A DNA stretch of 43,567 nt from Escherichia phage IK_ECO1, in the sequence record PP975109.1, one strand, 5' to 3'. Position numbers and translations under genes: made by a program. Of the stretch, positions 6,291 to 30,739 are shown in pieces (position 1 is the first letter of the stretch; each line of letters begins with the position of its first letter). Under the pieces are notes generated by a model, which worked only from the letters and a program-made list of their open reading frames with translations, ran no database searches and had not been told where the DNA came from.

Positions 6291-6293
6291 CAG

Positions 6294-15519: not shown

Positions 15520-17643
15520 ATGGCTCTCGTACGTAATATTACTGTCCCGAGTTATTACTCTGGACTTAACGTTGTTGACTACGGGGTAGTAGGCGACGGT
15601 ATCTCGGATGATACAGTAGCCTATACTCGAACTGTTGAAGCTGCTAATGCACTGCAACTGCCTGTATATGTACCTCCAGGTATGCGTGTCCGTATCACCG
15701 GTAGTTCTAACATTACACATAAGTACGGTTTTAACTTTAACGGCAGTACCTTGGATATTCAAGAGTATGCTGGTAAGTTCCTGTTCCAGCGCCAGGTAGC
15801 CCCTGTTCAATACTCTGCTGGTTCGCCACTTCTTACTGCTTTAGCAAGTACTACTTTAAGCGGAACTTATAACAGTGTTATGTCAGGCCGTACAGAACTG
15901 GATAACTGCTACGTAAATATAGTTACTAACCAGCCGTACTATACCTACCGTGGGGCTGTTACTACTCGTACTGAACGTTTAGCTGTAATCCGTAACGGTA
16001 TGCTTGAGGGCACTCTTAAATATCCGCTTGCAGGTTCTAGAATCACAGGCATCACTGCATACCCTCTTCCAGATAAGGAAGTAGTGTATGAGAACGTGGT
16101 GGTGGACGTAGGTGCTAATCAGCTGCAAGGTAACCCGTTCCTGATTGAGGCCGATAAGGTACGTTTAGAGAACTGGTCTTTTAAGCAATCTAACGTACTA
16201 TTTACCTCTGTAAATCCAGTATACGTAGTCATGCGTAACTGCTTCCATATGCGCGTACGCAACTTCCAGATGCAGTGGACTACTCGTACCGCTGCTAACA
16301 ACTTTACGTACGGCGTGGCTGCTGAGTACTGTTCAGATATCGAGTTTGACTCAATGAAAGGTGTAGGCGACGGTTGGGGCATGACCGGTTTCAACGAGAA
16401 TCGTCGCTGTACCTTCAGGAACTGTCAGCTTAGCCGAATAGATACGCACCAGCCTTTCATTGAATGGTTGCGTGTGCTGGACTGTGATACCGGTCAGTGG
16501 GGTATTAGTCTAACTGCCTTAGGTGATGTTATTGTTAAAGGTGGTAGCATTACCCTGACTAACGATAGCGTTTATACAGATAAGGTAGGCTTTATACTAT
16601 TGCGTAATGAGTGCGGCGGGGTACTGGATGGTCAGTTAGTAGTTGATGATGTTACCCTCAAGAACTACACCAGTACTACAACTCAAGCCTTAGTATATCA
16701 CCGTGGGGACTTAGCAGATGCCCCACCTTCAGGTTCCCCTGTTAACTTCCAATGCAGTAGCAGTATGCTCATCAAGAACCTGCGTTCAGATGGCCGCATC
16801 GTAGAGCTTGCCCCTACCATCAACGGTGCTTCAGGTATTAAGTACCCGGCCAGTATCGTAGTTCAGGACTGTATTGAAGGTATCTACAGCTTTGCTACTA
16901 ATATAAGTACCTTTACCCCGAACAGTACGATAACTACTCCAGTCGATAACGCCTTAGGTAGTATCTCGAATCTGAAGGTACAGTTACGTAGCTGCAATAT
17001 CCGCAGTAACGTCTCCCTGGTAGATACGTCCATCCCACAGAAATTTGTAGTGGATATGCTGCTTGATGGTGTATTCGGAAACGGTGCATTCAATCCGGGA
17101 CTACAGGTTAAGTTCGGAGGTACTGTCAGCTGTGTTAACTCTGTACTGGAAGGCTTGGACTTCTTCTCAGGGGCTGCACTGGACCGGTACTTGAAGGTGT
17201 CAGTAGTAGGTGGAGGTATTCGCCACACTGGACGTTTCCGTACTGTACCTGTGAACGGGGCTAATACCTTAGTCTCGGTTATTATCCAGGGAGCTGCATT
17301 GCAGAGCACTACGGCTGCTGCATTACGTTATTATATGGTGGCGCATCTGCAAGGTTGTACCTACAGCGTAGCCGGGTCTGCCAGTACCCCTACATTAACT
17401 GTCACCCCAGATGGTAGTACTAGTTACGATACTGGGGTAGTTGGTATTAACAGTAAGAACCTAATGCAACTTACAGCCAGTGTAAGTGGGGTACTTAGAA
17501 GGGTACCGTTCTTCCTGCCTGCTAGTGGTGGTAGTACTTACGTGCAGTTAGATAACGGTGTTTACGCTAACATAACCTACAGCGGAAGTACTGTAACTGT
17601 TTCTACCACAGCAGGTTTAGGCGGGATTACGTTGGTAGGCTGA
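15520..17643 (+). CDS. Tailspike / polysaccharide depolymerase, right-handed beta-helix (pectate-lyase-like), 707 aa
   Basis: N-terminal motif NVVDYGVVGDGISDDT typical of pectate lyase 3 / beta-helix tailspikes; last structural-type gene before the non-coding region; lacks T7 fiber anchor domain. Confidence 0.6.
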   Translation: MALVRNITVPSYYSGLNVVDYGVVGDGISDDTVAYTRTVEAANALQLPVYVPPGMRVRITGSSNITHKYGFNFNGSTLDIQEYAGKFLFQRQVAPVQYSAGSPLLTALASTTLSGTYNSVMSGRTELDNCYVNIVTNQPYYTYRGAVTTRTERLAVIRNGMLEGTLKYPLAGSRITGITAYPLPDKEVVYENVVVDVGANQLQGNPFLIEADKVRLENWSFKQSNVLFTSVNPVYVVMRNCFHMRVRNFQMQWTTRTAANNFTYGVAAEYCSDIEFDSMKGVGDGWGMTGFNENRRCTFRNCQLSRIDTHQPFIEWLRVLDCDTGQWGISLTALGDVIVKGGSITLTNDSVYTDKVGFILLRNECGGVLDGQLVVDDVTLKNYTSTTTQALVYHRGDLADAPPSGSPVNFQCSSSMLIKNLRSDGRIVELAPTINGASGIKYPASIVVQDCIEGIYSFATNISTFTPNSTITTPVDNALGSISNLKVQLRSCNIRSNVSLVDTSIPQKFVVDMLLDGVFGNGAFNPGLQVKFGGTVSCVNSVLEGLDFFSGAALDRYLKVSVVGGGIRHTGRFRTVPVNGANTLVSVIIQGAALQSTTAAALRYYMVAHLQGCTYSVAGSASTPTLTVTPDGSTSYDTGVVGINSKNLMQLTASVSGVLRRVPFFLPASGGSTYVQLDNGVYANITYSGSTVTVSTTAGLGGITLVG

Positions 17644-17662
17644 GGCATATCTGAGGCATATC
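17641..17662. repeat. Tandem 11-mer tgaggcatatc x2 beginning at the tailspike stop codon
   Basis: Seen directly in sequence. Confidence 0.8.
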
Positions 17663-17681
17663 TCAGGAAAGTGCATTAAGG

Positions 17682-17707
17682 TACATGGAAATCCTACATG
17701 GAAATCC
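17682..17707. repeat. Perfect tandem 13-mer tacatggaaatcc x2
   Basis: Seen directly in sequence. Confidence 0.85.
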
Positions 17708-17819
17708 CAGACTGAGCGCATGTAAACGTGCAGTTCATTTTTATTATACTTATGCGAGGACCTCCCTCACCCTCAACGCGCCCCAGTGCCCCCATAGGGG
17801 GTGCCCAGTGGAAATTAGA

Positions 17820-17830
17820 GGGGGGGGGGG
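17820..17830. repeat. G11 homopolymer flanked by palindromes (cccccataggggg; gcaggccaactagtgggcctgc)
   Basis: Seen directly in sequence. Confidence 0.8.
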
Positions 17831-17857
17831 TGGACGTTTAGACGTCTAGCAGGCCAA

Positions 17858-18280
17858 CTAGTGGGCCTGCTAGTGCGCTCTAGGGAGCCGTAGAAGCTCC
17901 CTGCGTGCCTTAGTGGGTATTGCTAGTGCTATCCTATGCTTATCGCTGTGTGCCTCTTGTAGAAGCTCTGGGAAGCTCTGGGAGGCACTGGGCTATCCCT
18001 TGCTATCCCTGCGTATTCACTGGGTGCGCTCTGGGCTATCCCTGCGTGCTCTCTGTGGGGCGTAGGGGGTGCGCTCTGCCTTGCTTATTTTGTGCCTGTA
18101 TTGTGCGCCTAGTGGGCCAGCTAGTGCGCTGTGGTGCTATCCCTAGTGCGTACTAGGCTATCCACTGGCTATCCTTAGTGCTTTACATTGTGCCGATTCT
18201 GTGCTACGCTGCGCGCTCCCCACTAGGGCGCACATCCACTACCCACCACACACCGCCACCTAGTGCTATCTCTTCACCCT
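17858..18280. repeat. Dense family of short direct repeats (ctagtg(c/g), gctatcc(c)t, gaagctctggg x2, ctgggctatccctgcgt x2) in non-coding DNA; probable genome-terminus / packaging or replication-associated region
   Basis: Repeats read by eye; no credible ORF; resembles short-repeat arrays near T7-type genome ends. Confidence 0.5.
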
Positions 18281-18309
18281 TACTTTCATTCGAAAGCTAA
18301 TAAGAAATG

Positions 18310-18327
18310 ATGTTACAGGAGTAGGAG
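18310..18327 (+). promoter_or_regulatory. Copy of repeated motif atgttacaggagtaggag in non-coding region; candidate phage RNAP promoter
   Basis: Exact identity with copies at 7085 and 38994. Confidence 0.4.
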
Positions 18328-18781
18328 GGTTTTAGGGCACTACATACACACTACCTACTACTACTCACTAGTATCCCCTAGTAATGCCCTATATTACGAC
18401 CGTAGGGAGTAAGCATTACCTACACAGTCACCGCATCACTACGTGCCCTTTCACTTCGTACGGGCACTACGTTCTGCTTATGTAGTGTTAGATGGTATTA
18501 GTTAGCATTGGCTAGTATTGGTTACAGCCATTGGCTGCATAGTGCTATCTCTAGAGCTATCACTAGAATAGAAGCATTGGCTAAGTGTTTGCCCTGCTTA
18601 CTCTTTTTGCTCTTAAGGATAAATAGTTGCAAAAAGTATCAAATAGTACTTGCTTCTTTTGGTTTATTGGCGCTATAGTTCAATCACCGGGAGGCACTGA
18701 GGCGCTGAACGGGGTAGAGTCGGGAGACTCCACCGGATTAAAGCTAGATGGTGTGAAGGGTTAGATACTCGATAAAAAGAG

Positions 18782-18810
18782 TTGACACCGCGAAGAACAT
18801 AAGCTAGATT
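18782..18810 (+). promoter_or_regulatory. Candidate host sigma70 early promoter: TTGACA - 17 nt - TAGATT
   Basis: Perfect -35 hexamer, 17-nt spacer, -10 with TAnnnT; upstream of early genes on the coding strand. Confidence 0.45.
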
Positions 18811-19010
18811 GAATCCCGAAGTAAGTAGTAAGGGTCGCTACCGGCTCCCACGGTAGCAGTTCGGGAAGGTACTACAACCTAACAAGGGCTTGACTAGCCC
18901 GCTAGTGTACCGCTGAGGCGGAGTAATACAGGACGCAAAGTGTCGCCCGCTGAGGGGCTACAGCTCACGGGGGAGGTTAACAGGCTCCCGATTTAGTAAG
19001 AAATAAACGC

Positions 19011-19039
19011 TTGACAAGTTCCGCTTACCTGAGTAACTT
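19011..19039 (+). promoter_or_regulatory. Candidate host sigma70 early promoter: TTGACA - 17 nt - TAACTT
   Basis: Perfect -35 hexamer, 17-nt spacer, weaker -10; further TTGACT/TTGACG hexamers at 18890, 19092, 19104 lack good -10 elements. Confidence 0.35.
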
Positions 19040-19070
19040 AGATAGTGAACAACGTAGTAAGCTGGTTTGC

Positions 19071-19082
19071 GGGGGGGGGGGG
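19071..19082. repeat. G12 homopolymer in the early leader
   Basis: Seen directly in sequence. Confidence 0.8.
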
Positions 19083-19431
19083 CCCAGTACCTTGACTGGT
19101 ACGTTGACGACCCATCCCCTAGACAATCAGTAGTAGTGAAGATGTAACGTCAAGAGCTGAGACGACAAACGGCTGGGGCGCTGAGGCGCTGCCCCTTAAA
19201 AGAATAGCGCCGAGAGGTTGAGTCCCTTCCACGGTTGTGCAGTGGGTCGTACTCACAGGTTGGCAGTCCTGAGCCGATAAGTGCATAGGCAGTCGCTCCC
19301 GTATCCAGTGAGCGCGGCAAATACTGCTGGTATCCTAGCAACCACTGGGCTAGGGGTGTTTGAGTTGGGTTTTAGGCGGGCAAATACATTCCGCCAGAAC
19401 TCAACCCATCAAACACTGAGAGGAGTACACA

Positions 19432-19647
19432 ATGAAATATCGTGATAAGTTAGCGCAACAATTCGCGGGGTTGGGGAAGCTATCTGGCGCTGAGTTGAGG
19501 AAGCGTCGGGATGCACTAAATCGTGCTGGGTATATGCGGGTGAAGCAATCTGCGACGTTCAGTACGAATGTACGCGGTAAGACCAAAACAAAGGGCAGTA
19601 GCAAGGCCCCGCAAGGCTGGTATACTGCTGGGCAGTTCGGACGCTAA
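19432..19647 (+). CDS. Early hypothetical protein, 71 aa, basic
   Basis: RBS gaggag 7 nt upstream of ATG; first ORF after the promoter region. Confidence 0.5.
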   Translation: MKYRDKLAQQFAGLGKLSGAELRKRRDALNRAGYMRVKQSATFSTNVRGKTKTKGSSKAPQGWYTAGQFGR

Positions 19648-19676
19648 TTACAGCCTATAGCATCCTGTGGGGTGCT
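19642..19676 (+). promoter_or_regulatory. Conserved stem-loop element, copy 1 (agcctatagcatcctgtggggtgctatgtgaagta)
   Basis: One of three related intergenic elements; stem tagcatcc / gggtgcta. Confidence 0.4.
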
Positions 19677-19725
19677 ATGTGAAGTAATTCGTTAGGTAAA
19701 CAATCAACAATCGATGAGGTGTATC

Positions 19726-20310
19726 ATGACTAAAGCAACCAATGCAACCGCTAAAGTATTCAAGTTAACTGCTGCGGGTAGCATCCGCAAAGCGCTGGGC
19801 GATGTAGTGGAAGCAAAGCGTAATATTACTATCAGTGCTCTGTTCCACGGTCTGATTAGTAGCAACGTTTCATGGGCTACGGATATGCAGCGTAGTGATG
19901 CCGCTGATTTCGATATGGTGCTGCGTACTTTGTTACCTATCAAGTTCAACAAAGAGTCGGGCAAGTACGAGTTCCACGCCAAAAAGTGTTATACATCGGC
20001 TGAGAAGCTGGGTATTGAGCTGGATAGTGTGCGTCTGGATTATAAACAAGCTGACAAGCAAGGCCGCGAAGAGATTGTTGCCAGCTTCTACAGCGCCTGT
20101 ATGGCCCTGTACGCTGCAGAAGCAGAACAAGTGAAGAATGATGCCCTTGATGCCGACGCAATGCGTCTACAAGCTCTGGGGCGCGTTAAAAATGCCATTA
20201 AGAAGGCAAAAGAGACTGGCGTAAGCGATTCAGATTTAGTAAGCATGCTTATCAGTCAAGGCGTTGATGTACGCGCTGTTCTGGATGCAACGCTGAAGGT
20301 GCCAGCATGA
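19726..20310 (+). CDS. Early hypothetical protein, 194 aa
   Basis: ATG 19726 with RBS gaggtg; track ORF starts 12 nt earlier at 19714. Confidence 0.5.
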   Translation: MTKATNATAKVFKLTAAGSIRKALGDVVEAKRNITISALFHGLISSNVSWATDMQRSDAADFDMVLRTLLPIKFNKESGKYEFHAKKCYTSAEKLGIELDSVRLDYKQADKQGREEIVASFYSACMALYAAEAEQVKNDALDADAMRLQALGRVKNAIKKAKETGVSDSDLVSMLISQGVDVRAVLDATLKVPA

Positions 20311-20439
20311 TTTATAAGGTTCCGGTTATCAAGTGGTGGGCGCTGTGCCCTGCGGCCAACGATGCGGACGCCTTCAACATCCCCACCCGTGGCCGTCACA
20401 ACAAGTGGCGGTATGAGGGATTAGGGGAATACGTATAGT
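20308..20439 (+). CDS. Small hypothetical protein, 43 aa (MIYKVPVIKWWALCPAANDA…)
   Basis: ATGA overlap with upstream stop; below ORF-track threshold; coding status uncertain. Confidence 0.25.
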
Positions 20440-20443
20440 GGCA

Positions 20444-20478
20444 AGCCTATAGCGTCCTACGGGGCGCTATGTGAATAC
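20444..20478 (+). promoter_or_regulatory. Conserved stem-loop element, copy 2 (agcctatagcgtcctacggggcgctatgtgaatac)
   Basis: Stem tagcgtcc / gggcgcta; differs from copy 1 by paired compensatory changes. Confidence 0.4.
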
Positions 20479-20498
20479 CGCTAACAATGAGGTTTCAA

Positions 20499-20720
20499 AT
20501 GAAAGCAAAGTTAATCTATCCGAGGCACGTGCTTTGGCCCTTGTGGCGCAACCAAGTGCACCCAGAGTACAACTACACTGTGATGATCTTCTCTGACCGG
20601 GACATCAATCAGGAATCCCCTTTAGACCTTGTTGATACTCATACCGAAATGGCGGCGCGCACTCTGCTGGACGCCGTGAATCTAGGTGTTATTACCGACT
20701 GGAGGCAACTTTATGCTTAG
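20499..20720 (+). CDS. Early hypothetical protein, 73 aa
   Basis: ATG 20499 with RBS tgaggt; track ORF begins at 20487. Confidence 0.45.
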   Translation: MKAKLIYPRHVLWPLWRNQVHPEYNYTVMIFSDRDINQESPLDLVDTHTEMAARTLLDAVNLGVITDWRQLYA

Positions 20721-20747
20721 CATTATTAATTGTGTTTGGAGCTAACT

Positions 20748-20936
20748 ATGCGGAATCTATACGGGAAGAATCCTGAGCAATTGCTTATGCGTAAGCAACA
20801 ACCAACAATAGACGGGCTGGCGCGGGAGTACAGCGCAAAGGCAACGCTGCGCCGGCACTACGAGAAACAAGCGAAGCGTCTGGGTATGACCCTGCGCGGC
20901 TACTGTCAACGTTTTAATGTACGAGGTGTAGTATGA
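20748..20936 (+). CDS. Early hypothetical protein, 62 aa
   Basis: ATG 20748 preceded by ggag; track ORF begins at TTG 20730. Confidence 0.45.
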   Translation: MRNLYGKNPEQLLMRKQQPTIDGLAREYSAKATLRRHYEKQAKRLGMTLRGYCQRFNVRGVV

Positions 20937-21136
20937 ATGACCTGGTTGAGTATGACTTGTACAAGCGCCCGAACGGGTTACTATACCGAGTATCGCTGCG
21001 TAGTGCGCTGCACGAGCACGCTGAACACTATAGCAATACTCTGCAGCGGTGGTTAAAGTCAGACCACAAAGTTGGCGGTATAATATCCAGCTGCACGAGC
21101 ACGCTAGTGGCCCGCAATGTAGTATTCAAGGATTAA
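20933..21136 (+). CDS. Early hypothetical protein, 67 aa
   Basis: ATGA overlap with upstream gene. Confidence 0.45.
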   Translation: MNDLVEYDLYKRPNGLLYRVSLRSALHEHAEHYSNTLQRWLKSDHKVGGIISSCTSTLVARNVVFKD

Positions 21137-21138
21137 AT

Positions 21139-21483
21139 ATGCTTACAGTAGACGAAACAGCGCTACTGTGTTGGCGCTTGCTAGAGACGCAGGGCAAGTG
21201 CGGTTGCAGTTGGGAAACATTCAAAGAGGTCCCTAATGAACTCAAAGGAATCGTACCAGTTGAGCGTCGATTACTCCACGTTAGAAAAGAAGGTGTTGGC
21301 ACTGTACTCAAAACCTATCGAGAGTACACTGAATCAGCCGCGCGGAGACTTCAGGAGCATATCTCATTTAATGTGGTTGCGGCGCTACGGCAGTATGGAT
21401 ATAGGGGAGCTTATACGCAATTTAGAGCAGCAGTGCGCGCCTATTACAAGCAGCGACAGCTCTCTGCGTGGTATGCACGCTGA
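21139..21483 (+). CDS. Early hypothetical protein, 114 aa
   Basis: ATG 21139 with RBS aagga, directly after upstream stop; track ORF 21049-21483 same frame with earlier start. Confidence 0.45.
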   Translation: MLTVDETALLCWRLLETQGKCGCSWETFKEVPNELKGIVPVERRLLHVRKEGVGTVLKTYREYTESAARRLQEHISFNVVAALRQYGYRGAYTQFRAAVRAYYKQRQLSAWYAR

Positions 21484-21529
21484 ACTTTTAATTCATGATG
21501 AAATAGCATTAACACTGGAGACAAAGAAA

Positions 21530-23251
21530 ATGCAAACGACTCGCGAGATGCAAGAAACTAGCAAAGCAGTTGCAGACATCAATGTGCCTGAATACGAGAA
21601 TTGGACCATCAAATTTCCAGAAGGGGTCAACGCTCTTCCACTGAAGGAACAGATGTACTCTTCCGGGGATTACTGGTGCCAACTTCCCTACCTATCAACT
21701 CAAGGCCATGCGCGCGTGCAAAGTAACAAAACCCGTGCGCTTTTGTATGGCTTTTATATGTTGTCAAAGGTGCTGCCGGGGTATGTTGTAGCACTCGGCA
21801 ACTTCACAGCTGCAGGAGAGGACTTGGGTGGGTGTGTTGGGCCGCTGGGCACGATTGATCTTAGTGACACTCTCCTGTATAAGCTCTTTGACTGTGCAGG
21901 TACCTACGACCAAGCATTCAGTTTATCTAGCAGAACCTTCTATGATGGCCCTGACGTAGTTACAGAACGCGTAGTAGAGGCGGTCCAATACTTTACCGGA
22001 TACAAGGTGCACAAGCAGGCTATCGAGCTGTTCGAAGAGATTATGCTAGCACCTACTTACTCCCTTCGGGCCAAATACACTCGCGGCTTGTACGGTGAGC
22101 GTGATGGTAATTACTGGGCAGCAACCTTGCTTATGCAGTTGCACGGATTTGTAGTATCTAGATTTGCAATCCCACTAGGTTTCGGCTTCCGCAACGGTGA
22201 GCCTGTAGTAATGCTGGGGCAGCCGCGACTGCACAAAGATTATGCTGCAATTACAGAGTATCGCTGTGTAGAGATGCGCGTAGGTAAGTGGCTCGCTAAC
22301 TATTACGGCAGTGGTGTAGACTTCCGGGAATGTATTGAAGACCTCAAAGCTATGAACGTGGAGCCTACTACATATCTTTGTAAGACCGAGCGGGAGTGGT
22401 ACTACGCATACGAGAACGGCCCTCGTAGCTGCATGACTGGATACGACTTCGAGGCTAGTCCGGTGCGTGTATATGCCACGACTAGTCACGGCTTGCCGGA
22501 CAATAATCTGCGCCTGTTCATCCAGTATACTGGTGAACTTTTTGGCGACGACTTTAAAGTGCATGCCCGTGCTATCGTTAACATTGAAACCAATGAATAT
22601 GTCCGTGCATACGGGGATGCTGCAGATGCCATCCTGCGTGCTAATGGGTATGCGAACGATACAGACTGCTTAGATGGTGCAATGCTGGCGCGTATCCCAC
22701 ACCCAGAGCATGATGGTGCCGTGCTTATGCCGTACTTGGATGGGAGCCAAGACGGGGTGGATGCCGAAGGGGATAGTGCATTCGTCATCTGTTATTGCTA
22801 TGACTACGAAGCACAAGACGCTGACGGGTACATTTGGATTGATGATGGTCGCAGTGCTTGTGTAGAGTGCGGGGAGCGATTCGACGAAGAGGACATGTTC
22901 GAGACTTCTGGTGGAGCTTATGTGTGCCCGCACTGTATTGGTGATACTTACGTACAGGTAGTAGGGCGCTCGGTGGTATATCCGTCATGGGATTGTTCAT
23001 GGTCCGACTACCACGATTGTTGGGTATATGACTTTGACGTAGCAGATTGTGCTGTAGAGGGTACAGTGCACGACCGAGAGCCGATGCAGTGTGCGCAAGG
23101 GTACGATGTTCTTAGCATCCACACCGAAGCACACCCAGTGCACGGCATAATCCTCACGGAGTACGCTGCGTCAGTGCTGGATGAGCCTTACCTCGGCAAC
23201 GAGGAAGCTAAAGAAGACAAAGAAGCTAACGCGGAACAGGAGGCAGCTTAA
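21530..23251 (+). CDS. Large early protein of unknown function, about 573 aa, Cys-rich zinc-ribbon-like C-terminal region and acidic tail
   Basis: ATG 21530 with RBS ggaga 9 nt upstream; track ORF 21236-23251 has an earlier in-frame start overlapping the previous gene; CxxC…CxxC (CVECGERF…CPHCIG) near C-terminus. Confidence 0.5.
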   Translation: MQTTREMQETSKAVADINVPEYENWTIKFPEGVNALPLKEQMYSSGDYWCQLPYLSTQGHARVQSNKTRALLYGFYMLSKVLPGYVVALGNFTAAGEDLGGCVGPLGTIDLSDTLLYKLFDCAGTYDQAFSLSSRTFYDGPDVVTERVVEAVQYFTGYKVHKQAIELFEEIMLAPTYSLRAKYTRGLYGERDGNYWAATLLMQLHGFVVSRFAIPLGFGFRNGEPVVMLGQPRLHKDYAAITEYRCVEMRVGKWLANYYGSGVDFRECIEDLKAMNVEPTTYLCKTEREWYYAYENGPRSCMTGYDFEASPVRVYATTSHGLPDNNLRLFIQYTGELFGDDFKVHARAIVNIETNEYVRAYGDAADAILRANGYANDTDCLDGAMLARIPHPEHDGAVLMPYLDGSQDGVDAEGDSAFVICYCYDYEAQDADGYIWIDDGRSACVECGERFDEEDMFETSGGAYVCPHCIGDTYVQVVGRSVVYPSWDCSWSDYHDCWVYDFDVADCAVEGTVHDREPMQCAQGYDVLSIHTEAHPVHGIILTEYAASVLDEPYLGNEEAKEDKEANAEQEAA

Positions 23252-24285
23252 TGTATGGTGTTGACCTTAAACTACTGACAAAGATACTAACAACGCACCG
23301 ACCTAGCTGGGGTAGTACCAAATGGTTTGAGCCTCTTCTTAGTGGTGCCCTTGCCAATGCAGAGCACTATGTAAGGGATGCGCACGGTAACTACTTTGTA
23401 CTAATTGGTAACTCTGAACAGAGCGACGTAGCGTTTACATCACACCTCGATACAGTGGCCCGGCCCGGTAGCGCTGCGCCGGACATTGCAATTACTAACA
23501 AGGGCGTAATGTTCCTGCGGAATCCACAGGTTGCGGACTGTCTCGGGGCAGACTGTGGTGCCGGTATCTACCTGATGCTGGAGATGATTAAGCGCGGTGT
23601 GCATGGACGTTACTGCTTCTTCGTGGATGAGGAAGTAGGTTGTGAGGGCAGCAGAGCATCAGCCAAGGACGATACTGGCTTCTGGACTGGGGTCAAGGCA
23701 ATGATTAGCTTTGACCGCCGGGGTGATGGTATCATCACGCATCAACGATACCAGCGTTGCTGTTCTGATACGTTCGCAAAAGAACTCGCGGCCCGGCTAG
23801 GGCGCACGGAAGCGCACTTACAGAAAGGAGTGTACACTGACTCTGCCGAGTTCATAAGTATTATCCCAGAGTGCACTAACGTAGGCGTAGGGTACATGCA
23901 TGAGCATACACCAGACGAGGTGTTGGACTTGAATATACTCGGACAAGTACTTGAGCGCGTACTACAAGCGGGTACGTTCAAGCACCTACCGATTGAGCGG
24001 GATCCTAAGGTAGTGGAGCCGGATGCGTGGTTGTCCGCCTCAGCGTACCCTTTTGTCACAGCGCTGGATATTCCCCCTGCAGAGGATCCGCATTTACTAG
24101 CAGCATTCAAGGAGGTGTCACAGCTTTCTAAGCAGCAACTGATTGGTTGGGTGTTGGATAACCCGGCAAGAGCGGCAGAGTACATCATGGTGTATTCTGA
24201 CTATGGATTTAAAGATGAGCTGATTGAACTAGGTACCCGAGTTGTAGAGGACTGGGGTGGGTATGATAATATTGTGGAGGGTTGA
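23251..24285 (+). CDS. Putative Zn-metallopeptidase-like protein (M20/M28/M42-type motif order), 344 aa
   Basis: Motif order H-x-D (SHLDTV), GADCGAG, DEEVGCEG, later HEH, as in aminopeptidase-type metal sites; read by eye, not searched. Confidence 0.35.
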   Translation: MYGVDLKLLTKILTTHRPSWGSTKWFEPLLSGALANAEHYVRDAHGNYFVLIGNSEQSDVAFTSHLDTVARPGSAAPDIAITNKGVMFLRNPQVADCLGADCGAGIYLMLEMIKRGVHGRYCFFVDEEVGCEGSRASAKDDTGFWTGVKAMISFDRRGDGIITHQRYQRCCSDTFAKELAARLGRTEAHLQKGVYTDSAEFISIIPECTNVGVGYMHEHTPDEVLDLNILGQVLERVLQAGTFKHLPIERDPKVVEPDAWLSASAYPFVTALDIPPAEDPHLLAAFKEVSQLSKQQLIGWVLDNPARAAEYIMVYSDYGFKDELIELGTRVVEDWGGYDNIVEG

Positions 24286-24287
24286 TT

Positions 24288-24746
24288 ATGTCTAAGTTTA
24301 AAGTTGGTGATAAGGTTGTACGCAAACATTATAAAGATGATGAGATATTTAAAAGCAGACAAGGGGATTGTATTTACTACACAATTACTGATATGTCCGA
24401 ACATGGCTACTGGCTGCAGTTGAATAACTTTTCCTACGATGGTGATCGCGTGCCGTGGTCTGCTGCCAACTTCGAGCTATATCAAGAGCCGGACGACGAG
24501 CTGCCACCGGTTCCGGACAGCGTCTACTATCCGGATATGTACACACTGTTAACGGGGTTACGTGCATGTGAAGGTACATCCGGGTTAACTGTGCGGAAAT
24601 CTCCATATACCTCGGGGGCTTTAAGCCTATCTATTGATGATAGTAAATGGACACGATTAGATGCGGATGCAGCCCTGCAGTTAGCGCATGACCTACGCCG
24701 CATGGCTATGGAGATTCGGAGGAAGGAGAAAGCTAGTGAAGTATGA
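24288..24746 (+). CDS. Hypothetical protein, 152 aa, N-terminal FKVGDKV barrel-like motif
   Basis: ATG 24288 with RBS ggaggg; N-terminus similar to the protein at 27422. Confidence 0.45.
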   Translation: MSKFKVGDKVVRKHYKDDEIFKSRQGDCIYYTITDMSEHGYWLQLNNFSYDGDRVPWSAANFELYQEPDDELPPVPDSVYYPDMYTLLTGLRACEGTSGLTVRKSPYTSGALSLSIDDSKWTRLDADAALQLAHDLRRMAMEIRRKEKASEV

Positions 24747-25197
24747 GTATAACCCGGATACCGGCGAGATACTCCGTTACGGAAAACCCGTGGGGTCTAA
24801 GGACTCCTCTGGGTATTTGGTGGTATGGGTAGATGGCAAGTGCTGGAGAGCACACCGTCTTGCTTACCATTTGCAAGGCCTGCCTGTACCCAAACAAGTG
24901 GACCACATAAACGGCATCCGAGACGATAACAGGTGGATTAATCTGCGAGCAGCCACTAACTCGCAGAACCAATACAATAGAAAACCCTGCTCTTCCTCAG
25001 GGAATTTGAAGGGTGCTTATTACAATAAAGCAATGCGTAGTTGGTATTCTTTAATCAGGGTAAATGGTAAACGTAAGTATCTAGGTTCCTTTACTTCTGA
25101 GGAAGCAGCTCACGCTGCCTATGTGGAAGCGGCACAGCAACTACATGAGGGTTTTGATATATGGACGAGCCGTGGCTTAGAGCCTGCAAGCGCCTAG
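24736..25197 (+). CDS. HNH homing endonuclease with AP2-type DNA-binding domain
   Basis: HRLAYH…VDHINGIRDDNRWINL…SQNQ (HNH) followed by GAYYNKAMRSWYSLIRVNGKRKYLGSFTSEEAAHAAY (AP2-like); GTG 24736 likely start, or ATG 24688. Confidence 0.7.
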   Translation: MKYEYNPDTGEILRYGKPVGSKDSSGYLVVWVDGKCWRAHRLAYHLQGLPVPKQVDHINGIRDDNRWINLRAATNSQNQYNRKPCSSSGNLKGAYYNKAMRSWYSLIRVNGKRKYLGSFTSEEAAHAAYVEAAQQLHEGFDIWTSRGLEPASA

Positions 25198-25949
25198 CTA
25201 TAGGGCAGTCCAGCAGGTTCAGGTGCTGCGGGAGCACTCCCGCGGCGATAATCTACAACAAGCAAGACGCCTGGAGTATGTACTGTTTCCGGTGTCACAA
25301 AACAGTTAATGAGCGCAAGCAGTATCAGCGCATACAGTTACAGGAAGAGCCGAGGGTGCAGCCCTCTGCACCTGCAGATGCAATTTGCATTAGCCAAGCG
25401 ACTGCAGAAACACAGAGTTTTATTTACGGATTCCTTGCTTCAAAAGGAATCATGCCTGAAATGGTGGAGGATGCAGAATGGAGCAACGAGAAACAGCGGA
25501 TACTATTCCGTGTCGGGGGTGCTGTACTGGGTCGTGCTGTTCATGCCCGACAGCAACCGAAGTGGGTAATGTACGGCCAGCCAATACCGTTCGCTGCCGT
25601 GGGACCTGCCGTAGCACCGGATGTAGCTGCGGCCGCACCTCTAAAGGTCGTGCTCACCGAGGACTTACTCTCAGCCCGGAAGATACAGCACGCAGTTACG
25701 AGCTACAGTGCGTTGAACGTGCAGGCTATAGCTATGCTGGGTACACGCTTGCCCACGCCGCTAAGGGCCTGGCTGATTCAGAATCGCCCGGAAGCGATTC
25801 TGATGCTAGACAATGACCCGGCAGGGCACGCTGGGGTAGCGGCGGCGCGCAAAGCACTGCGCCCGTTCATGCAGTGCCGAGAACACTACTTCGCTGCGGA
25901 CCCTAAGGACGCAGAAATCAAGGAGATACTGGAGGCTTTGGATGTTTAA
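25161..25949 (+). CDS. DNA primase (zinc-binding N-terminus plus TOPRIM), 262 aa
   Basis: Cys cluster CCGS…CFRCH; TOPRIM-like LTEDLLSA and LMLDNDPAGHAG motifs; precedes helicase. Confidence 0.6.
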   Translation: MDEPWLRACKRLAIGQSSRFRCCGSTPAAIIYNKQDAWSMYCFRCHKTVNERKQYQRIQLQEEPRVQPSAPADAICISQATAETQSFIYGFLASKGIMPEMVEDAEWSNEKQRILFRVGGAVLGRAVHARQQPKWVMYGQPIPFAAVGPAVAPDVAAAAPLKVVLTEDLLSARKIQHAVTSYSALNVQAIAMLGTRLPTPLRAWLIQNRPEAILMLDNDPAGHAGVAAARKALRPFMQCREHYFAADPKDAEIKEILEALDV

Positions 25950-26148
25950 GAATAAGTACAGAGTAGTGCAGGACAGCTACGCAGGATTTGAGGCGCAGGT
26001 TAAGTTCTGGTGGTTTCCGGTGCGCTGGTGGCAACTGTGCAGATCCGGGCGTGGGGTGGGTACTAACACGTACCCCAACCTTCATGAGGCAGAGAGCCTG
26101 TGTCGAGTACACGCCAGAAAGAGTACCATCTACAAAGTGGAGGTTTAA
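25942..26148 (+). CDS. Hypothetical protein, 68 aa
   Basis: RBS ggagg before ATG; between primase and helicase. Confidence 0.4.
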   Translation: MFKNKYRVVQDSYAGFEAQVKFWWFPVRWWQLCRSGRGVGTNTYPNLHEAESLCRVHARKSTIYKVEV

Positions 26149-27429
26149 TTGGACCTAATAGTAGTCAAGGCAATGTGCACGCAGAAGGTCTGGAACCGAC
26201 TGCGAGAGCAGATACCAAAGAGCATGCTCGCCCCCGATACCTCTAACCTACTGGACTGGGTAGGGCTGTACTGGAACACGTACCCGGAACACCAGGAGGT
26301 GCAGTGGGATGCGATGCAGAGCATGCTCAACCTCCGGGCCGGGCATCTATCCCGTGAAGAGCGGGTGATTATGGATGAGCTTATGCGGGGAGTACAAGCC
26401 GTGCCACAGGATTCTGTGGTGGGGATTGTCCAGACCCTGAACGAGCTAGCCTACAGCGGGGAGGTTGCGGCACTTACACAGCGCTACCAAGACGGTGAGG
26501 AGGTTGATTATCTTCTGGAGATGAAGCACCTCCAGCGCAAGTACGGTGATGGTGCTGCTGTTCATGATTCGCTACTGGAATGGGAGAGCGGAAGTGTTGA
26601 TGAGATACTTGCCGCGACTGATGAAAGTGGCGGGCTTAAACTGGGTGTGTTTGAGCAGCTGTCTAATAGCATTCGTGGGCTTCGCGGCGGTGATTGCATC
26701 GCCGTTGCTGCCCCTGTTGATTCTGGTAAAACTAGTCTACTCGCTGCTATTGCCGTGGACTTTGCTAAGCAGATGCAGCAGCAACCGGAAGTATACGGGG
26801 ATCGTCCGATTCTGTGGTTGGTTAACGAAGGCCCGGCGACGCGTACAGTGCCGAGGGTATATCAAGCGGCGCTGCATTGGACTCTGGCTGAGATTAAGGA
26901 GAGGCACAGTAAGCAAGAGTTTGTGCCAGCCTATCTAGAGAAAGTAGGTAGGGCCGACCGTATTCGTATCAAGGCAGCTCACTCTCTTACTATGGCTCAA
27001 ATCTCTACACTCATGGAGGAGATGCGCCCGGCAGTAATCATCATAGATATGGTGGCCAACATCCGTGGCGGAACTATGGAGAGCGAGCACCAGAATCTAG
27101 AGGCGAAGTGGCAGGAGCTGCGTATCTTGGGGTGTGAGAATGACTGTGCTGTTATTGGTACTATGCAGCTTTCACTCGAAGGTTACAACCTACTGTTTCC
27201 TCCGCTCACAGCAATGAAGCAGAGTAAGATTGGTGTACAAGGCGCTTTGGATTTGGCGATTATGATGGGGTGCTTGGACAGGAACGAGCAGCCGCATATG
27301 CAAAACATCCGTGGTATCAGTACACCTAAGAACAAGATGGCACTGTCTGGTAAGGAGTCGCTACTGCAATTTGAGGTAGCATTCGACCCAGGTAGGTGCC
27401 GATTTAATGAGGGTCAAATTAATGTGTAA
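26149..27429 (+). CDS. Replicative DNA helicase (DnaB/gp4-like), 426 aa
   Basis: Walker A AAPVDSGKTSLLA and Walker B-like VIIIDMV; TTG start at 26149 or ATG at 26173. Confidence 0.7.
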   Translation: MDLIVVKAMCTQKVWNRLREQIPKSMLAPDTSNLLDWVGLYWNTYPEHQEVQWDAMQSMLNLRAGHLSREERVIMDELMRGVQAVPQDSVVGIVQTLNELAYSGEVAALTQRYQDGEEVDYLLEMKHLQRKYGDGAAVHDSLLEWESGSVDEILAATDESGGLKLGVFEQLSNSIRGLRGGDCIAVAAPVDSGKTSLLAAIAVDFAKQMQQQPEVYGDRPILWLVNEGPATRTVPRVYQAALHWTLAEIKERHSKQEFVPAYLEKVGRADRIRIKAAHSLTMAQISTLMEEMRPAVIIIDMVANIRGGTMESEHQNLEAKWQELRILGCENDCAVIGTMQLSLEGYNLLFPPLTAMKQSKIGVQGALDLAIMMGCLDRNEQPHMQNIRGISTPKNKMALSGKESLLQFEVAFDPGRCRFNEGQINV

Positions 27430-27742
27430 TTTTAAAATTGGTGATAAAGTACGGCGCGATGTTGACCTAACCCGTGAGGCAGCTGACCGTACAGGTGTTC
27501 GTAGGGGTCGTGTATACACCGTTCGTAACGCAAGCGAGGCGATGATACAGCTGGTCGAATCAAAGGAACCTACCTTTCACTTTGCTCCAGAGGCATTCTC
27601 CCTAGTATCCCACAGTACTAATTGGGATGTAAATGAAGCGTTACGTCTGCGGGACTTGGCGGTACAGGCTATACAGGAGTATAACACGTACCTGCTGCGG
27701 CAGCCGCTGCTAGAGGCTATTGATATTCCGCTAATCAAGTGA
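27422..27742 (+). CDS. Hypothetical protein, 106 aa, N-terminal FKIGDKV motif (paralog of 24288 gene N-terminus)
   Basis: MCNFKIGDKVRR aligns with MSKFKVGDKVVR; alternative ATG at 27407. Confidence 0.45.
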   Translation: MCNFKIGDKVRRDVDLTREAADRTGVRRGRVYTVRNASEAMIQLVESKEPTFHFAPEAFSLVSHSTNWDVNEALRLRDLAVQAIQEYNTYLLRQPLLEAIDIPLIK

Positions 27743-27747
27743 CTTCC

Positions 27748-27780
27748 CTAGCGCCTTCCTAGAGGGCGCTATGTAGGTAC
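27748..27780 (+). promoter_or_regulatory. Conserved stem-loop element, copy 3 (ctagcgccttcctagagggcgctatgtaggtac)
   Basis: Stem tagcgcc / ggcgcta followed by tatgt…gta as in copies 1 and 2. Confidence 0.35.
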
Positions 27781-27792
27781 ATAGGAGGCTAT

Positions 27793-27948
27793 TATGCTTA
27801 AACCGTCAGACATCAACTACCTCGATGACGAGGTAATCAAGGTGTACGCTGCATCTGCAGGTACTTTCCGTAAACGATTCGCGCTGGAAGTTAGCCAGCT
27901 GATTGTGCATCTGGCTATCAACAAGGCTCGGAGGACTAATTGGAAATG
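27793..27948 (+). CDS. Small hypothetical protein, 51 aa
   Basis: RBS ataggagg before ATG 27793; stop overlaps HNH start (ATGA); below track threshold. Confidence 0.3.
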
Positions 27949-28395
27949 AGTGAGTGCGTAGACCACGGACAGAAGGGAAGCACTTGCCGAGGAAAGGGTG
28001 CTGGATATGGCCGCTCCAGATTTGACGGGGAGACAACTGGCAGCCACCGCAAAGCATACTGTATAGCCCACAACTTGAAGCTGAGCGATATCGCGGGACT
28101 TGTAGTCCGGCATTCGTGCGACAATCCTCGGTGCATAAATCCGGAGCACCTGCTACTAGGGACTTCTAGCGATAATATGCAGGACCGAAATAAAGGTGCG
28201 CGTAATTTACTGGGCAGCCGCAACCCTGCTGCCAGACTTACCCCAGAAGACGTGCACAGCATACGAGAAGCATACGCTGGCGGTGAGACCCAGGTATCTA
28301 TAGCGAGACGCTTCGGGACAAGTCAAGGATACATATCTAATATCATAAAGGGGAGGGTATGGAATGAGCAGAAGCATCCTGATAACGGATTATGA
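27946..28395 (+). CDS. HNH endonuclease, about 149 aa
   Basis: VVRHSCDNPRCINPEHLLLGTSSDNMQDR; ATG 27946 with RBS ggagga; 3' end overlaps the DNA polymerase start by 32 nt. Confidence 0.7.
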   Translation: MSECVDHGQKGSTCRGKGAGYGRSRFDGETTGSHRKAYCIAHNLKLSDIAGLVVRHSCDNPRCINPEHLLLGTSSDNMQDRNKGARNLLGSRNPAARLTPEDVHSIREAYAGGETQVSIARRFGTSQGYISNIIKGRVWNEQKHPDNGL

Positions 28396-30739
28396 GACGC
28401 AAAATCACCCGTATTACGGTAGCGTTGCTTCCCCGTACTGTCCGGATAATTACATCGTAGAATCAGCGTGGCGTATTGACCGCACGCACGATGACGGTAC
28501 GGTAGAAGTAGGCCCCGTAGAGAGTGTACGGTATAACAGTCGCGCGCACTTTGAAGCGGCACCTGTATCAGAATGGCTCCCAATACCAGCTGACTGTTGG
28601 CTGATTGTGGCCCACAACGCCGCATATGAGATTAGCTGGTTCCTAACCTTTGCGCGCGCCGAGTTTGAGGCCTTCCTAAAGCGGGGAGGTCGCGTATTCT
28701 GTACGATGCATTCTGAGTACATCGCCTCGGACTTTCAGAACATGTATCCTTCGCTGGACGAGACGGCTCCTAAGTACGGCGGTACGCACAAAGTAGATGG
28801 GGTTAAGATTCTCTGGGAGCAGGGTGTATTAACCTCCCAGATTGACCCGATGCTGCTGCACGACTACCTAGTTAACGGGGACATCCCGAACACGGCCCTA
28901 TGCTTCTACGGGCAGTGCGCTACGTTCGCCCAGCGTAACCAGATGCAGTACGTGTGGGAACGTATGGATGCCTTACTGGCCTGGGCCTACTGCGAATGGT
29001 TCGGTCTGTTCGTGAACATGCCCATTGCTCGCAAGAACCAAGAAGAGCAGGAACAGCGTATACTGGAGATTAAGAAGGAGCTGCAGCAGTACATCCCGAA
29101 GGACTTGCCGGAAACACTGGATTTCAACTTCGGCTCTGACTTTCATATGTCTGCGCTGGTCTACGGCGGGCCTATCAAGTATCGCAAGAAAGTGCCGTAC
29201 GACCCACCACAGTACGTTAAGTATGATGCGTATCTAGTGCAGGGCACTGACGGGACATTCGTACCATGCGATAGCACAGACGTTTCTGGGCCACATAATT
29301 ACGTAACCTACAAAGCAGGGAAGAACAAGGGCCTGCCAAAAGTGTTCCGAGTGGACACCGACGAGGAGAAACTTAAATGGGAGGATGATCTCTACTTCTG
29401 TCCGGGCCTGGTTAATATCCAAGAACTCCCCGAGGTGCTTCGAGAGAAGTATGCCGAGCGCGGAGAGTTCAGGCAAGCCCGGTGCCTGCAGGATGGGACA
29501 CCAGTCTACAGTACTAGCACCGACGCTATGGAAGCCCTAGCACGTCACGGGTTTGAGTTCTGTCGATTGGTGAACGAGCTAGGCGCTCTGGAGAAGGACA
29601 CGGGAACCTACTACTTAAGGGAGGTTCTTGATTCTGAGGGGCGCGTCAAAGAGCGCAAGGGGATGCTGCAGTATGTAATCCCGGAACGAGAAGATGGTTC
29701 AGGTATTATCCACCACCGTTTGAATACCAGCGCTACTGTGACGGGGCGTTTAAGCAGCTCTAACCCGAACCTGCAGAACCTGCCCCGCCCAGATGAGGAC
29801 GGGGATGGGGTGGCTAAATCCAAGGTGAAGCAGGTATTCACCAGTCGATTCGGCGATAACGGACGCATCACTGAGGTTGACTACTCGGCGCTGGAAGTGG
29901 TTATGTCCTGCGTGCATACGGGTGACAAGAAACTGCTGGGACTGCTGCAGAGTGGTACGGATATGCACTGCTACCGCCTAGCTTTCCGCGAGGAACTGCC
30001 CTATGAAGAAGTATATGAGCGCTGCCACAACAAGAAGCACGAGCTGCATCCGGTTTGGAAGGCAATGCGTACAGGTATTAAGGCTCCTAGCTTTGCAGCC
30101 CAGTATGGCGCTACGGCTAAGGGGATTGCGTTTGCTACTGGATGTACGGTGGAATTTGCACAGGCTTTCTTGGACAATGAGGCTGCGCTGTTCCCGCAAA
30201 CAATTGGCTTCCGCGCTGTTGTCAAGGAAGAGGTAGAGCGTACTGGGGCAGCCGGGCGTATTTATCGGGAACAAGCTGATGATGGTAGCTACCGCATCTA
30301 TCGCATTGGCACCTGGACCAGCCCAGCTGGTGCACGGTACAGCTTCCGCCAGAAGGAGCAGTGGAAGGAAGTAGTACCTGGCCAGCGCAAACAAAAGGTG
30401 ATGGACTACAAAGAAACTGAGATGGCTAACTACTGGTGTCAGGGTGAGGCATTCTTCCTGATGGCAGTAGCAGCTGGCATGGTTCTGCGTGCAATGCTGG
30501 CGCGTGATTGGTTCGATAACCAGGTGTGTTTGATTACGAACGTGCACGATGCGTTGTATCTGGATAGTGCTAATCCAGAAGTAGGCAGAGAAGCGAGCTT
30601 GTTGGTCAAGCAGTGTATGGAGGATGCGCCTAAGCGTATCCACCAGCTCTGGCCTAACTACGGCATCATTGGCGAGGTCCCGTTCCCAGCGGAAGCTGAA
30701 ATGGGTACGAGTATGTACAGCAAGGAGAAAGTAGAATGA
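28364..30739 (+). CDS. DNA polymerase, family A (T7 gp5-like) with 3'-5' exonuclease domain, 791 aa
   Basis: Exo I motif ITDYETQ; Pol I motif TGRLSSSNPNLQNLP; motif C-like NVHDALY. Confidence 0.85.
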   Translation: MSRSILITDYETQNHPYYGSVASPYCPDNYIVESAWRIDRTHDDGTVEVGPVESVRYNSRAHFEAAPVSEWLPIPADCWLIVAHNAAYEISWFLTFARAEFEAFLKRGGRVFCTMHSEYIASDFQNMYPSLDETAPKYGGTHKVDGVKILWEQGVLTSQIDPMLLHDYLVNGDIPNTALCFYGQCATFAQRNQMQYVWERMDALLAWAYCEWFGLFVNMPIARKNQEEQEQRILEIKKELQQYIPKDLPETLDFNFGSDFHMSALVYGGPIKYRKKVPYDPPQYVKYDAYLVQGTDGTFVPCDSTDVSGPHNYVTYKAGKNKGLPKVFRVDTDEEKLKWEDDLYFCPGLVNIQELPEVLREKYAERGEFRQARCLQDGTPVYSTSTDAMEALARHGFEFCRLVNELGALEKDTGTYYLREVLDSEGRVKERKGMLQYVIPEREDGSGIIHHRLNTSATVTGRLSSSNPNLQNLPRPDEDGDGVAKSKVKQVFTSRFGDNGRITEVDYSALEVVMSCVHTGDKKLLGLLQSGTDMHCYRLAFREELPYEEVYERCHNKKHELHPVWKAMRTGIKAPSFAAQYGATAKGIAFATGCTVEFAQAFLDNEAALFPQTIGFRAVVKEEVERTGAAGRIYREQADDGSYRIYRIGTWTSPAGARYSFRQKEQWKEVVPGQRKQKVMDYKETEMANYWCQGEAFFLMAVAAGMVLRAMLARDWFDNQVCLITNVHDALYLDSANPEVGREASLLVKQCMEDAPKRIHQLWPNYGIIGEVPFPAEAEMGTSMYSKEKVE

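Follow-up and report, generated by a model that had tools for sequence, protein, structure and literature searches.

The early and middle regions of Escherichia phage IK_ECO1 (sequence record PP975109.1) carry three short hairpins between genes, which we call copies 1, 2, and 3, and this raises the question of what such structures do there. The whole stretch that we analyzed, the window, is 43,567 nucleotides (nt) long. An earlier note, made from the sequence alone, had described the hairpins as one three-copy stem-loop family and had named RNase III-type processing sites, attenuators, and regulator-binding sites as candidate roles. We found that the elements are a real, strongly conserved RNA structure and that copies 1 and 2 belong together in a single RNA family, while copy 3 is a separate class. 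The motif is a known one with a discredited label, and it is most likely of an ordinary kind, a phage RNase III signal in a lineage where such signals have so far gone unrecognized. Among the three proposed roles, RNase III processing is the best supported, by architecture, by register, and by an intergenic place like that of the T7 sites. Thus, we propose that the elements are probably sites at which host RNase III processes the early and middle polycistronic mRNA, as in T7. We ranked the rival readings by plausibility, with a structural or binding-only RNA first, followed by a site for another RNA-binding protein, a DNA hairpin, a promoter, and a terminator.

Copies 1 and 2 belong to a single RNA family

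The sequence GGGYGCTATGTR occurs exactly three times in the window, at 19670, 20462, and 27764, always on the plus strand, where 0.01 occurrences are expected. Independently, a repeat finder returned a 32-nt pair (19652-19683 and 20444-20475, 88% identity) and an 18-nt triple, one member of which lies at 27757-27774. The hairpins are thus real and beyond chance, as had been claimed. Copy 1 spans 19644-19691 on the plus strand, as defined by the RNA fold and by the covariance model of the family described below. Its lower stem pairs 19644-19651 with 19684-19691, its internal loop sets AG-C-C (19652-19655) against U-G-AA (19680-19683), with C19654 paired to G19681, and its upper stem of 10 base pairs (bp) joins 19656-19665 to 19670-19679 under the tetraloop UGUG (19666-19669). 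The earlier note had put this copy at 19642-19676, about 14 nt too far left, and the hairpin it described was only the upper half of the element, the lower stem having been missed. The model matched copy 1 over 19638-19699 with 73.1 bits (E = 1.4e-20), and the minimum free energy (MFE) of its RNA was -20.2 kcal/mol (z = -3.45). Copy 2 spans 20436-20483 on the plus strand by the same two measures. It has a lower stem of 20436-20443 and 20476-20483 with one C.A mismatch, an internal loop of 20444-20447 and 20472-20475, and a 10-bp upper stem of 20448-20457 and 20462-20471 under the tetraloop UACG (20458-20461). The model matched it over 20430-20491 with 69.9 bits (E = 1.4e-19), and its MFE was -24.5 kcal/mol (z = -3.88). 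The whole element is therefore a two-part helix of about 48 nt, or about 21 bp-equivalents including the internal loops, made of a lower stem of 6 to 8 bp that is free in sequence, the internal loop AGCC / UGAA, a 10-bp upper stem, and a tetraloop. No additional element of the kind turned up when we scanned the whole window for strong local hairpins and folded the remaining intergenic gaps.

A G+C-rich hairpin between genes could be an intrinsic terminator or attenuator. However, there is no U-run (T-run in the DNA) 3' of any of the three copies, as the earlier note had also observed, and a terminator scan of 17600-20800 did not flag copies 1 and 2. The real terminator of this genome, at 43465, has an 11-T run. 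We rejected the terminator reading on the missing U-run; it has next to no chance of being correct, and the attenuator falls with it from the list of proposed roles.

We collected variants through a pattern scan of viral contigs and through a synteny-based fetch of 40 loci encoding the gene between copies 1 and 2. This yielded about 80 distinct variants, and in nearly all of them the flanks pair too. The flanks are cTAATTACag...tgaaGTAATTa in the copy 1 type, TAGTAGCAag...tgaaTGCAACTA in the common copy 2 type, and AGTGGCAag...tgaaTACCGCT in the window's own copy 2; we also observed GGTTAATag...tgaaATTAACC, GGTTGACag...tgaaGTTAACC, GAGTGATGaa...tgaaCATCATTC, and AAGTAATag...tgaaATTACTT. The MFE fold is identical across the variants, (((((((..(.((((((((((....)))))))))).)..))))))), that is, a lower stem, AG, a C-G pair, a C.U mismatch, the 10-bp stem, and the tetraloop.

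We then aligned 80 variants without gaps over 62 columns and compared their 19-pair structure with 500 shuffles. Paired cells made up 93.4% of the alignment's total against 76.1% in the shuffles, a level that none of the 500 reached. Both sides had changed at 13 of the 19 pairs, the covariation score was 0.426 against 0.137, and slid controls were only 25 to 43% paired. Every lower-stem pair occurred as three to five pair types, and the covariation was confirmed on the synteny-chosen set. Thus, the folding and covariance-model comparison with related genomes that had been suggested as a check found the paired positions conserved. The paired A...T versus G...C difference that the earlier note had seen between copies 1 and 2 is present at 19662/19673 and 20454/20465, and across the 80 variants this pair is GC in 41, AU in 35, and CG in 3. 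The upper stem is far more conserved than the lower one; in it, UAUAG/CUAUG has become UACAG/CUGUG, with one single-change intermediate, and several compensated upper-stem changes occur in distant members. The loop varies freely in sequence and in length, from 3 to 8 nt (8 nt in locus L018, 5 nt in L072). Two U.G pairs are kept, one in 79 and the other in 78 of the 80 variants.

A covariance model (R1) was built from the 80 variants, and the family, CCUAUAG...CUAUGUGAA, is defined by a match to it. On the reverse complements this family model gave only 12.2 bits for copy 1 and 10.6 bits for copy 2, against the plus-strand scores given above. In the 40 synteny-chosen loci it found 79 copies, all 79 of them on the coding strand and all with at least 61 bits; every locus had at least one copy, 36 had two, and 3 had three.

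Some Drulisvirus genomes (L124, L133, and L146; also L062, L089, and L111) carry a third family member about 90 nt 3' of copy 1, which has a separate lower stem, GGTTAAT/ATTAACC. This points to the insertion of a small gene that came with a site or was supplied with one. The 43-kb viral contig L072 has two family members.

The virion RNA polymerase promoters of phage N4 are DNA hairpins of 5 to 7 bp with a 3-nt loop, on the template strand. The elements resemble them in being short early-region hairpins of a podovirus whose genome encodes a T7-like polymerase, and we asked whether they could act as DNA, as a hairpin or cruciform that serves as a replication or priming signal, a site-specific nick, or an N4-style promoter. 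A nick site was raised by Eriksson et al. (PMC4411677), a 2019 promoter test on linear double-stranded DNA would miss an N4-style promoter (PMC6834552), and T7-type RNase III palindromes act at the DNA level on the Lamassu defense (PMC11707656). However, in DNA a G.T or A.C mismatch would stand in place of each conserved G.U pair, the two U.G pairs leading to A.C mismatches on the opposite strand. The DNA folds are weak, only -8 to -9 kcal/mol (z of -1.4 to -1.9 for copies 2 and 3), and those of the minus strand are weaker still. Minus-strand RNA also folds less well than plus-strand RNA, at -14.1, -18.1, and -14.0 kcal/mol for copies 1, 2, and 3. In their G.U pairs, their weak DNA folds, and their placement (79 of 79 copies on one strand relative to the genes), the elements differ from N4 promoters and favor RNA, which leaves action as DNA only a slim chance. 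Selection on the RNA structure of the plus strand is strongly supported, because the pairs covary, the G.U pairs are kept, and the copies are placed on the coding strand only. The suggestion of selection on structure in the earlier note was therefore sound.

Copy 3 and the occurrence of the family in other phages

Copy 3 (27739-27782, plus strand) is a related but distinct hairpin. Its lower stem pairs GUGACUU (27739-27745) with AGGU(A)CAU (27775-27782), its internal region is C.U / C-G / C.U (27746-27748 with 27772-27774), and its 10-bp upper stem joins 27749-27758 to 27762-27771 under the triloop CUA. The MFE of its RNA was -21.4 kcal/mol (z = -3.52). The family model did not detect copy 3 even at E of at most 10 with filters off. 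Its likeness to copies 1 and 2 goes no further than TAGCG...GGGCGCTATGT and the general geometry, with the same C-G pair flanked by C.U mismatches and the same 3' sequence GGGCGCUAUGU. Thus, copy 3 forms a class of its own, which the earlier note had missed; its three-copy family holds for copies 1 and 2 and not for copy 3. Copy 3 is conserved in 240 phage records. Its relatives differ only in the triloop (CUA, UAU, or UAC) and show no variation in the stem, so covariation is not assessable for it. In most relatives it lies directly 3' of the helicase gene, and in the window an extra open reading frame (ORF) of 111 codons (27407-27742) stands between the helicase gene (26149-27429) and copy 3, with its stop codon in the lower stem.

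An Rfam scan of 17600-28400 in E-value mode matched no family at thresholds and gave no match at copies 1 or 2. At copy 3 it returned only a sub-threshold mir-6644 match (27729-27794, E = 2.2), whose 20.4 bits are far under the gathering score of 82 and which we took as chance.

The 10.8 kilobases (kb) around the elements match about 265 phage records at 80 to 95% identity, with Klebsiella phages in the majority. The best covered matches, at 87 to 90% identity, are Klebsiella phage Hope, Shigella phage SFN6B, and Escherichia phages Minorna and PSK2. Because the matching records are KP34-like, with KpV475 classified in Autographiviridae, Slopekvirinae, Drulisvirus, the window is a circularly permuted Drulisvirus (KP34-like) genome. 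The family also occurs outside this genus. SP6 (Zindervirus, Molineuxvirinae) has a member between genes 6 and 7, 5' of the polymerase gene (67 bits), and K1E (Vectrevirus) has one at the syntenic site between gp5 and gp6 (45.2 bits). K1-ULIP33-like Klebsiella phages (Molineuxvirinae) carry a member, as does J8-65 (Bonnellvirus; 69.3 bits). All the phages with the family infect enterobacteria. The SP6 polymerase promoter is unrelated to that of KP34, yet the element is common to these enterobacterial phages; therefore, the shared element points to a host factor and not to the phage polymerase.

This distribution bears on the reading under which the motif was first published. Eriksson et al. 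in 2015 listed as "putative phage promoters" two sites in the early region of five KP34-like phages, with the consensus AGCCTATAGCGTCCTACGGGGCGCTATGTGAA and a nick site as the alternative (PMC4411677, Table 3). The 32-nt core of copies 1 and 2 is this motif, at the same two early positions. The promoter reading rested on its being the longest repeated intergenic motif, upstream of genes (PMC4411677). However, Lu et al. in 2019 amplified the region, as linear double-stranded DNA only, and obtained no RNA from it with purified KP34 RNA polymerase; the true KP34 promoters are T(A/G)ATGTTACAGGAGTA, found elsewhere, and a weak site within the polymerase gene (PMC6834552). A 2025 paper reports that the "standard" KP34 promoter of a prediction tool disagrees with the experimentally validated one (PMC11880802). 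The motif occurs, moreover, in K1E, in J8-65, and in SP6, whose polymerase has an unrelated promoter, and pairing-preserving covariation in flanks of free sequence is unlike the evolution of a double-stranded promoter. We rejected the promoter reading, which is refuted in vitro (PMC6834552) and concerns a motif that is not polymerase specific; we regard it as very improbable. The strong promoter T(A/G)ATGTTACAGGAGTA itself has three exact plus-strand copies in the window, at 7083-7098, 18308-18323, and 38992-39007. The copy at 18308-18323, TGATGTTACAGGAGTA, lies 5' of the early region, and its sequence has no relation to that of the stem-loops.

No function has thus been attached to the motif since 2019, and the publications of 2015 and 2019 had both been missed by the earlier note. 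The 2015 description (PMC4411677) differs from ours in lacking the lower stem, the covariation, copy 3, and the members in other genera. Public phage records carry no annotation for the element; only flanking or overlapping coding sequences lie under the matches. We found no paper naming the motif an RNase III site in the searchable literature, older SP6, K1-5, and K1E papers in subscription journals being outside its reach.

Of the three promoter copies, one lies inside ORF 6340-10038, one 5' of the early region, and one immediately 3' of the RNA polymerase gene, which mirrors the three KP34 positions.

Comparison with the RNase III sites of T7

According to the text of PMC1540722 (Pertzev and Nicholson 2006), Escherichia coli RNase III's substrates usually have two helical turns, and internal loops confine cleavage to one phosphodiester, with a protective 3' hairpin left behind. 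The same text gives 11 bp as the minimum helix between the cut and the tetraloop for good reactivity and describes the tetraloop sequence as irrelevant. The determinants it names are a proximal box (pb) of 4 bp, a middle box of 2 bp, and a distal box (db) of 2 bp (U-A / U.G). In the proximal box, G-C or C-G at pb2 or pb4 is inhibitory and the optimal pairs are G-C at pb1 and A-U at pb3; the T7 site R1.1 has a U.C pair at pb4 (PMC1540722). We assigned the box positions below from the residue numbers in this text, without its figures.

All three copies are two-turn irregular hairpins with an internal loop between stems. They lie on the transcribed strand of polycistronic RNA and between genes; all genes are on the plus strand, the stop codons are in the lower stems, and promoters are upstream. 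Each of five T7 early sites (R0.3, R0.5, R1, R1.1, and R1.3) folds into a lower stem, an internal loop, an upper stem of 9 to 10 bp with G.U, and a loop of 3 to 5 nt, and these sites, like our elements, are intergenic in polycistronic early RNA. Read from bottom to top, T7 R1.1 is C.U A-U A-U G-C G-C U.G C-G A-U U.G U-A C-G. Copy 1 is C.U U.G A-U U-A A-U G-C C-G A-U U.G C-G C-G, and copy 2 is the same except for G-C at position 7. Copy 3 is C.U U-A A-U G-C C-G G-C C-G C-G U.G U-A C-G. Thus, copies 1, 2, and 3 and the SP6 and K1E members have the register of T7 R1.1, a C.U mismatch and then 10 bp with U.G at position 8, and their upper segment attains the 11-bp length given in the text of PMC1540722.

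On our box assignment, all three copies have C.U at pb4, as R1.1 does, and A-U at pb2, and the G/C antideterminants are absent. The db2 position is U.G in the three copies and in the SP6 and K1E members, and this is the U.G pair kept in 78 of the 80 variants. Copy 3 also has the canonical U-A at db1 and G-C at pb1. Position 7, the covarying pair, would lie outside the three boxes, which fits its free exchange between A-U and G-C, and the freedom of the loop fits the indifference of RNase III to loop sequence described in that text. The T7 sites and the elements are further alike in the stem top, CAUYC-loop-GRGUG, and in the 3' flank, UAUG.. or U|AGGUAC, and the predicted cut of copy 3, U|AGGUAC, has the same heptamer context as T7 R1. 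In contrast, the elements have a smaller, symmetric internal loop (AG-C-C / U-G-AA, in which a C-G pair is embedded), and the base of their upper stem is UAUAG/CUAUG, where the T7 sites have AAGG/CCUU.

The two kinds of hairpin occur near each other in J8-65. Gaps of about 70 nt lie between its early genes; the family element fills one of them, and neighboring gaps hold hairpins near-identical to T7 R1 (ACAGGCCAUCUGCGGGUGGCCUGAA) or similar to R1.1 (CUCAAGCC...GGCUUUAUG).

J8-65 has a two-part hairpin in almost every early gap (2532-2611, 2922-2989, 3258-3329, 3604-3681, and 3932-4005), two of them near-identical to the T7 R1 upper stem and one R1.1-like, and none is annotated in the record. 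In SP6, two-part hairpins flank the family member (2113-2181 and 3319-3392), one of them just before the RNA polymerase gene, as is T7 R1. K1E has at 2271-2331 a hairpin close to T7 R0.3, immediately 5' of an ocr-like gene.

A mechanism for the elements would run as follows. The early and middle regions would be transcribed as long plus-strand polycistronic RNAs that start at the host promoter (18782) and at the phage promoter (18308). Directly after the stop codon of the upstream gene, each element would fold into a helix of about two turns, consisting of the lower stem, the small internal loop, an upper segment of 11 positions (C.U and 10 bp), and the loop. RNase III, a double-strand-specific endonuclease of the host, would bind this two-turn helix and, because of the internal loop, would cut on the 3' side only, 2 nt beyond the C.U mismatch. 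The 28-nt upper product given for R1.1[WC] in the text of PMC1540722 sets the 3' cut at 2 nt past the nucleotide of pb4 and hence predicts cuts at 19682|19683 in copy 1, 20474|20475 in copy 2, and 27774|27775 in copy 3. The upstream mRNA would retain a 3'-terminal hairpin as a shield against 3' exonucleases, and the downstream mRNA would acquire a defined 5' end 19 to 45 nt before the start codon. The earlier note had put the hairpins 10 to 50 nt upstream of gene starts, which is roughly right. What we observed are the structure, its covariation, strand, positions, distribution, and register; from these we infer both the cleavage and its effects on mRNA stability and translation. Copy 3 is probably an RNase III processing signal as well.

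Several observations weigh against processing by RNase III. The searchable literature gave us no transcript-end mapping for any Drulisvirus. The family model, run on T7 1-8000 at E of at most 10, returned nothing at the five T7 sites, and the likeness to them is one of architecture and register, not of demonstrated homology; its bridge to the T7 sites is a weak one that passes only through the R0.3-like hairpin of K1E (17.2 bits, E = 0.006). We take the cleavage coordinates of the T7 early sites to be those of Dunn and Studier 1983; the feature tables of the T7 records NC_001604 and V01146 do not list them, and our support for them is indirect, namely, the folds at these places and the 28-nt product in the text of PMC1540722. 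On the box assignment from that text, copies 1 and 2 are sub-optimal at pb1 (U-A), pb3 (U.G), and db1 (C-G), which lowers the reactivity of minimal substrates; the C-G at db1 is also present in T7 R0.3 and R1. Lastly, the internal-loop nucleotides are invariant across four genera, beyond the known need of RNase III, and another factor could read the element.

The sub-optimal boxes would also suit a structured RNA that works independently of RNase III cutting, as a protective or insulating hairpin or as a binding-only site. Such an RNA could block exonucleases or RNase E, uncouple the translation of neighboring genes, or bind RNase III uncleaved, and cleavage-resistant but binding-competent substrates are described in the text of PMC1540722. 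The structure, covariation, and strand evidence speak for it as they do for processing. However, a plain barrier hairpin needs no conserved two-part geometry, no exact 11-position upper segment, and no distal-box U.G in common with T7 R1.1. We consider this structural role unlikely, while placing it ahead of the other rivals.

The invariant internal loop raises the further question of whether a specific host or phage protein binds there. Columns 15-22 and 39-46 are near-invariant across the four genera and the lower stem is free to drift, as might be seen if the stack of A.A, G.A, C-G, C.U, and U.G were the site of a translational repressor or of nut-like antitermination. There are two to three copies per early region, like nut sites. 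The nut sites of lambda (boxB) and the put sites of HK022 are also small cis-acting RNA hairpins in two copies 3' of early promoters; however, boxB is a 5-bp stem whose loop is recognized, whereas the elements are helices of about 21 bp with a free loop. We found neither an N-like protein nor a boxA, and there is no candidate protein common to these phages. In SP6 and K1E the polymerase gene is near the early promoters, where long-range antitermination is unneeded, and part of the invariance was imposed by the pattern with which we collected the distant members. A dedicated protein of this kind is thus a doubtful explanation. The sequence-specific regulator that was the third of the roles first proposed keeps some chance of being right.

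RNase III processing could itself be combined with a second reader. The non-canonical stack is invariant in at least four genera, from two subfamilies and an unplaced genus, and it might be a recognition module that goes beyond a generic RNase III site. Candidate readers are an RNA-binding protein of the host or phage that gates RNase III cutting for early-gene timing or, at the level of a DNA hairpin, palindrome-sensing defenses of the Lamassu/DdmABC sort. We hold this out as a speculative addition with rather low odds.

RNase III processing offers a concrete, testable function for an orphan motif once labeled a KP34-like "phage promoter." If it is correct, the annotation could be corrected in about 250 genomes of therapeutic-candidate Klebsiella phages, early mRNA processing would be common to T7-, SP6-, and KP34-type phages of enterobacteria, and phage engineers would learn which intergenic segments to leave intact. 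Previous work has shown that T7-type RNase III-site palindromes on plasmids trigger DdmABC (Lamassu)-dependent death in Vibrio cholerae (PMC11707656). Therefore, the similar elements described here might also be sensed at the DNA level by palindrome-sensing host defenses.

Genes around the elements and other features of the window

All long ORFs of the window are on the plus strand, among them the genes for DNA polymerase (28364-30739) and RNA polymerase (36519-38987). Each element is intergenic and begins at a stop codon, like the T7 sites; the stop codons of the upstream genes are inside the lower stems, and the ribosome-binding sites of the downstream genes are just outside the elements. 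The early gene 5' of copy 1 (19432-19647, plus strand, 71 amino acids, phrog_6352) ends in a TAA (19645-19647) within the 5' arm of the lower stem. Between copies 1 and 2 is a plus-strand early gene of phrog_5277 (19714-20310), whose true start is likely the ATG at 19727, 3' of the ribosome-binding site GAGGTG. It is followed by a small early gene (20307-20438, plus strand, 43 amino acids, phrog_10968) with its TAG (20436-20438) in the 5' arm of the copy 2 lower stem. The early gene 3' of copy 2 (20487-20720, plus strand, phrog_7657) likely starts at the ATG at 20499, 3' of GAGG. Copy 3 is followed by a small gene (27794-27949, plus strand, 51 amino acids, phrog_4548) with the ribosome-binding site AGGAGG at 27783-27788.

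Upstream of the early genes, we found a sigma-70-type host promoter, TTGACA-17-TAGATT (18782-18810, plus strand), which matches the KP34-like host promoter in PMC4411677 Table 3. It would drive an early transcript containing copies 1 and 2; transcription from the phage promoter at 18308 would likewise include both copies. The strong rho-independent terminator noted above (43465-43503, plus strand) consists of GCCCCTGGTGCCTTCGGGTGCCAGGGGC followed by the 11 T and corresponds to the one that is listed after the major capsid region in KP34-like phages.

Runs of G11 at 17820-17830 and 19071-19081, in the regions 17776-18160 and 19066-19081, occur with the short direct repeats CTAGTGGGCCNGCTAGTGCGCT and GCTATCCCTGCGT. 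These features lie between the last structural gene and the early promoters and probably mark the physical genome end and the terminal-repeat region of the permuted assembly. The ORFs at 24282-24746 and 27407-27742 (plus strand) share a 29-nt 5' end (24288-24316 and 27422-27450) at 86% identity, and the second is missing from KpV475. Because relatives annotate HNH endonucleases in that region, both ORFs may be mobile homing-endonuclease insertions. Finally, a 160-nt gap after the DNA polymerase gene and a cluster of small ORFs holds a perfect, very A+T-rich inverted repeat, GGGGUCAAGCAGAUAAUUAAAUAAAAUUAUUUGUUGACUCUGG (31020-31075), which could be an origin-like or promoter-bearing region.

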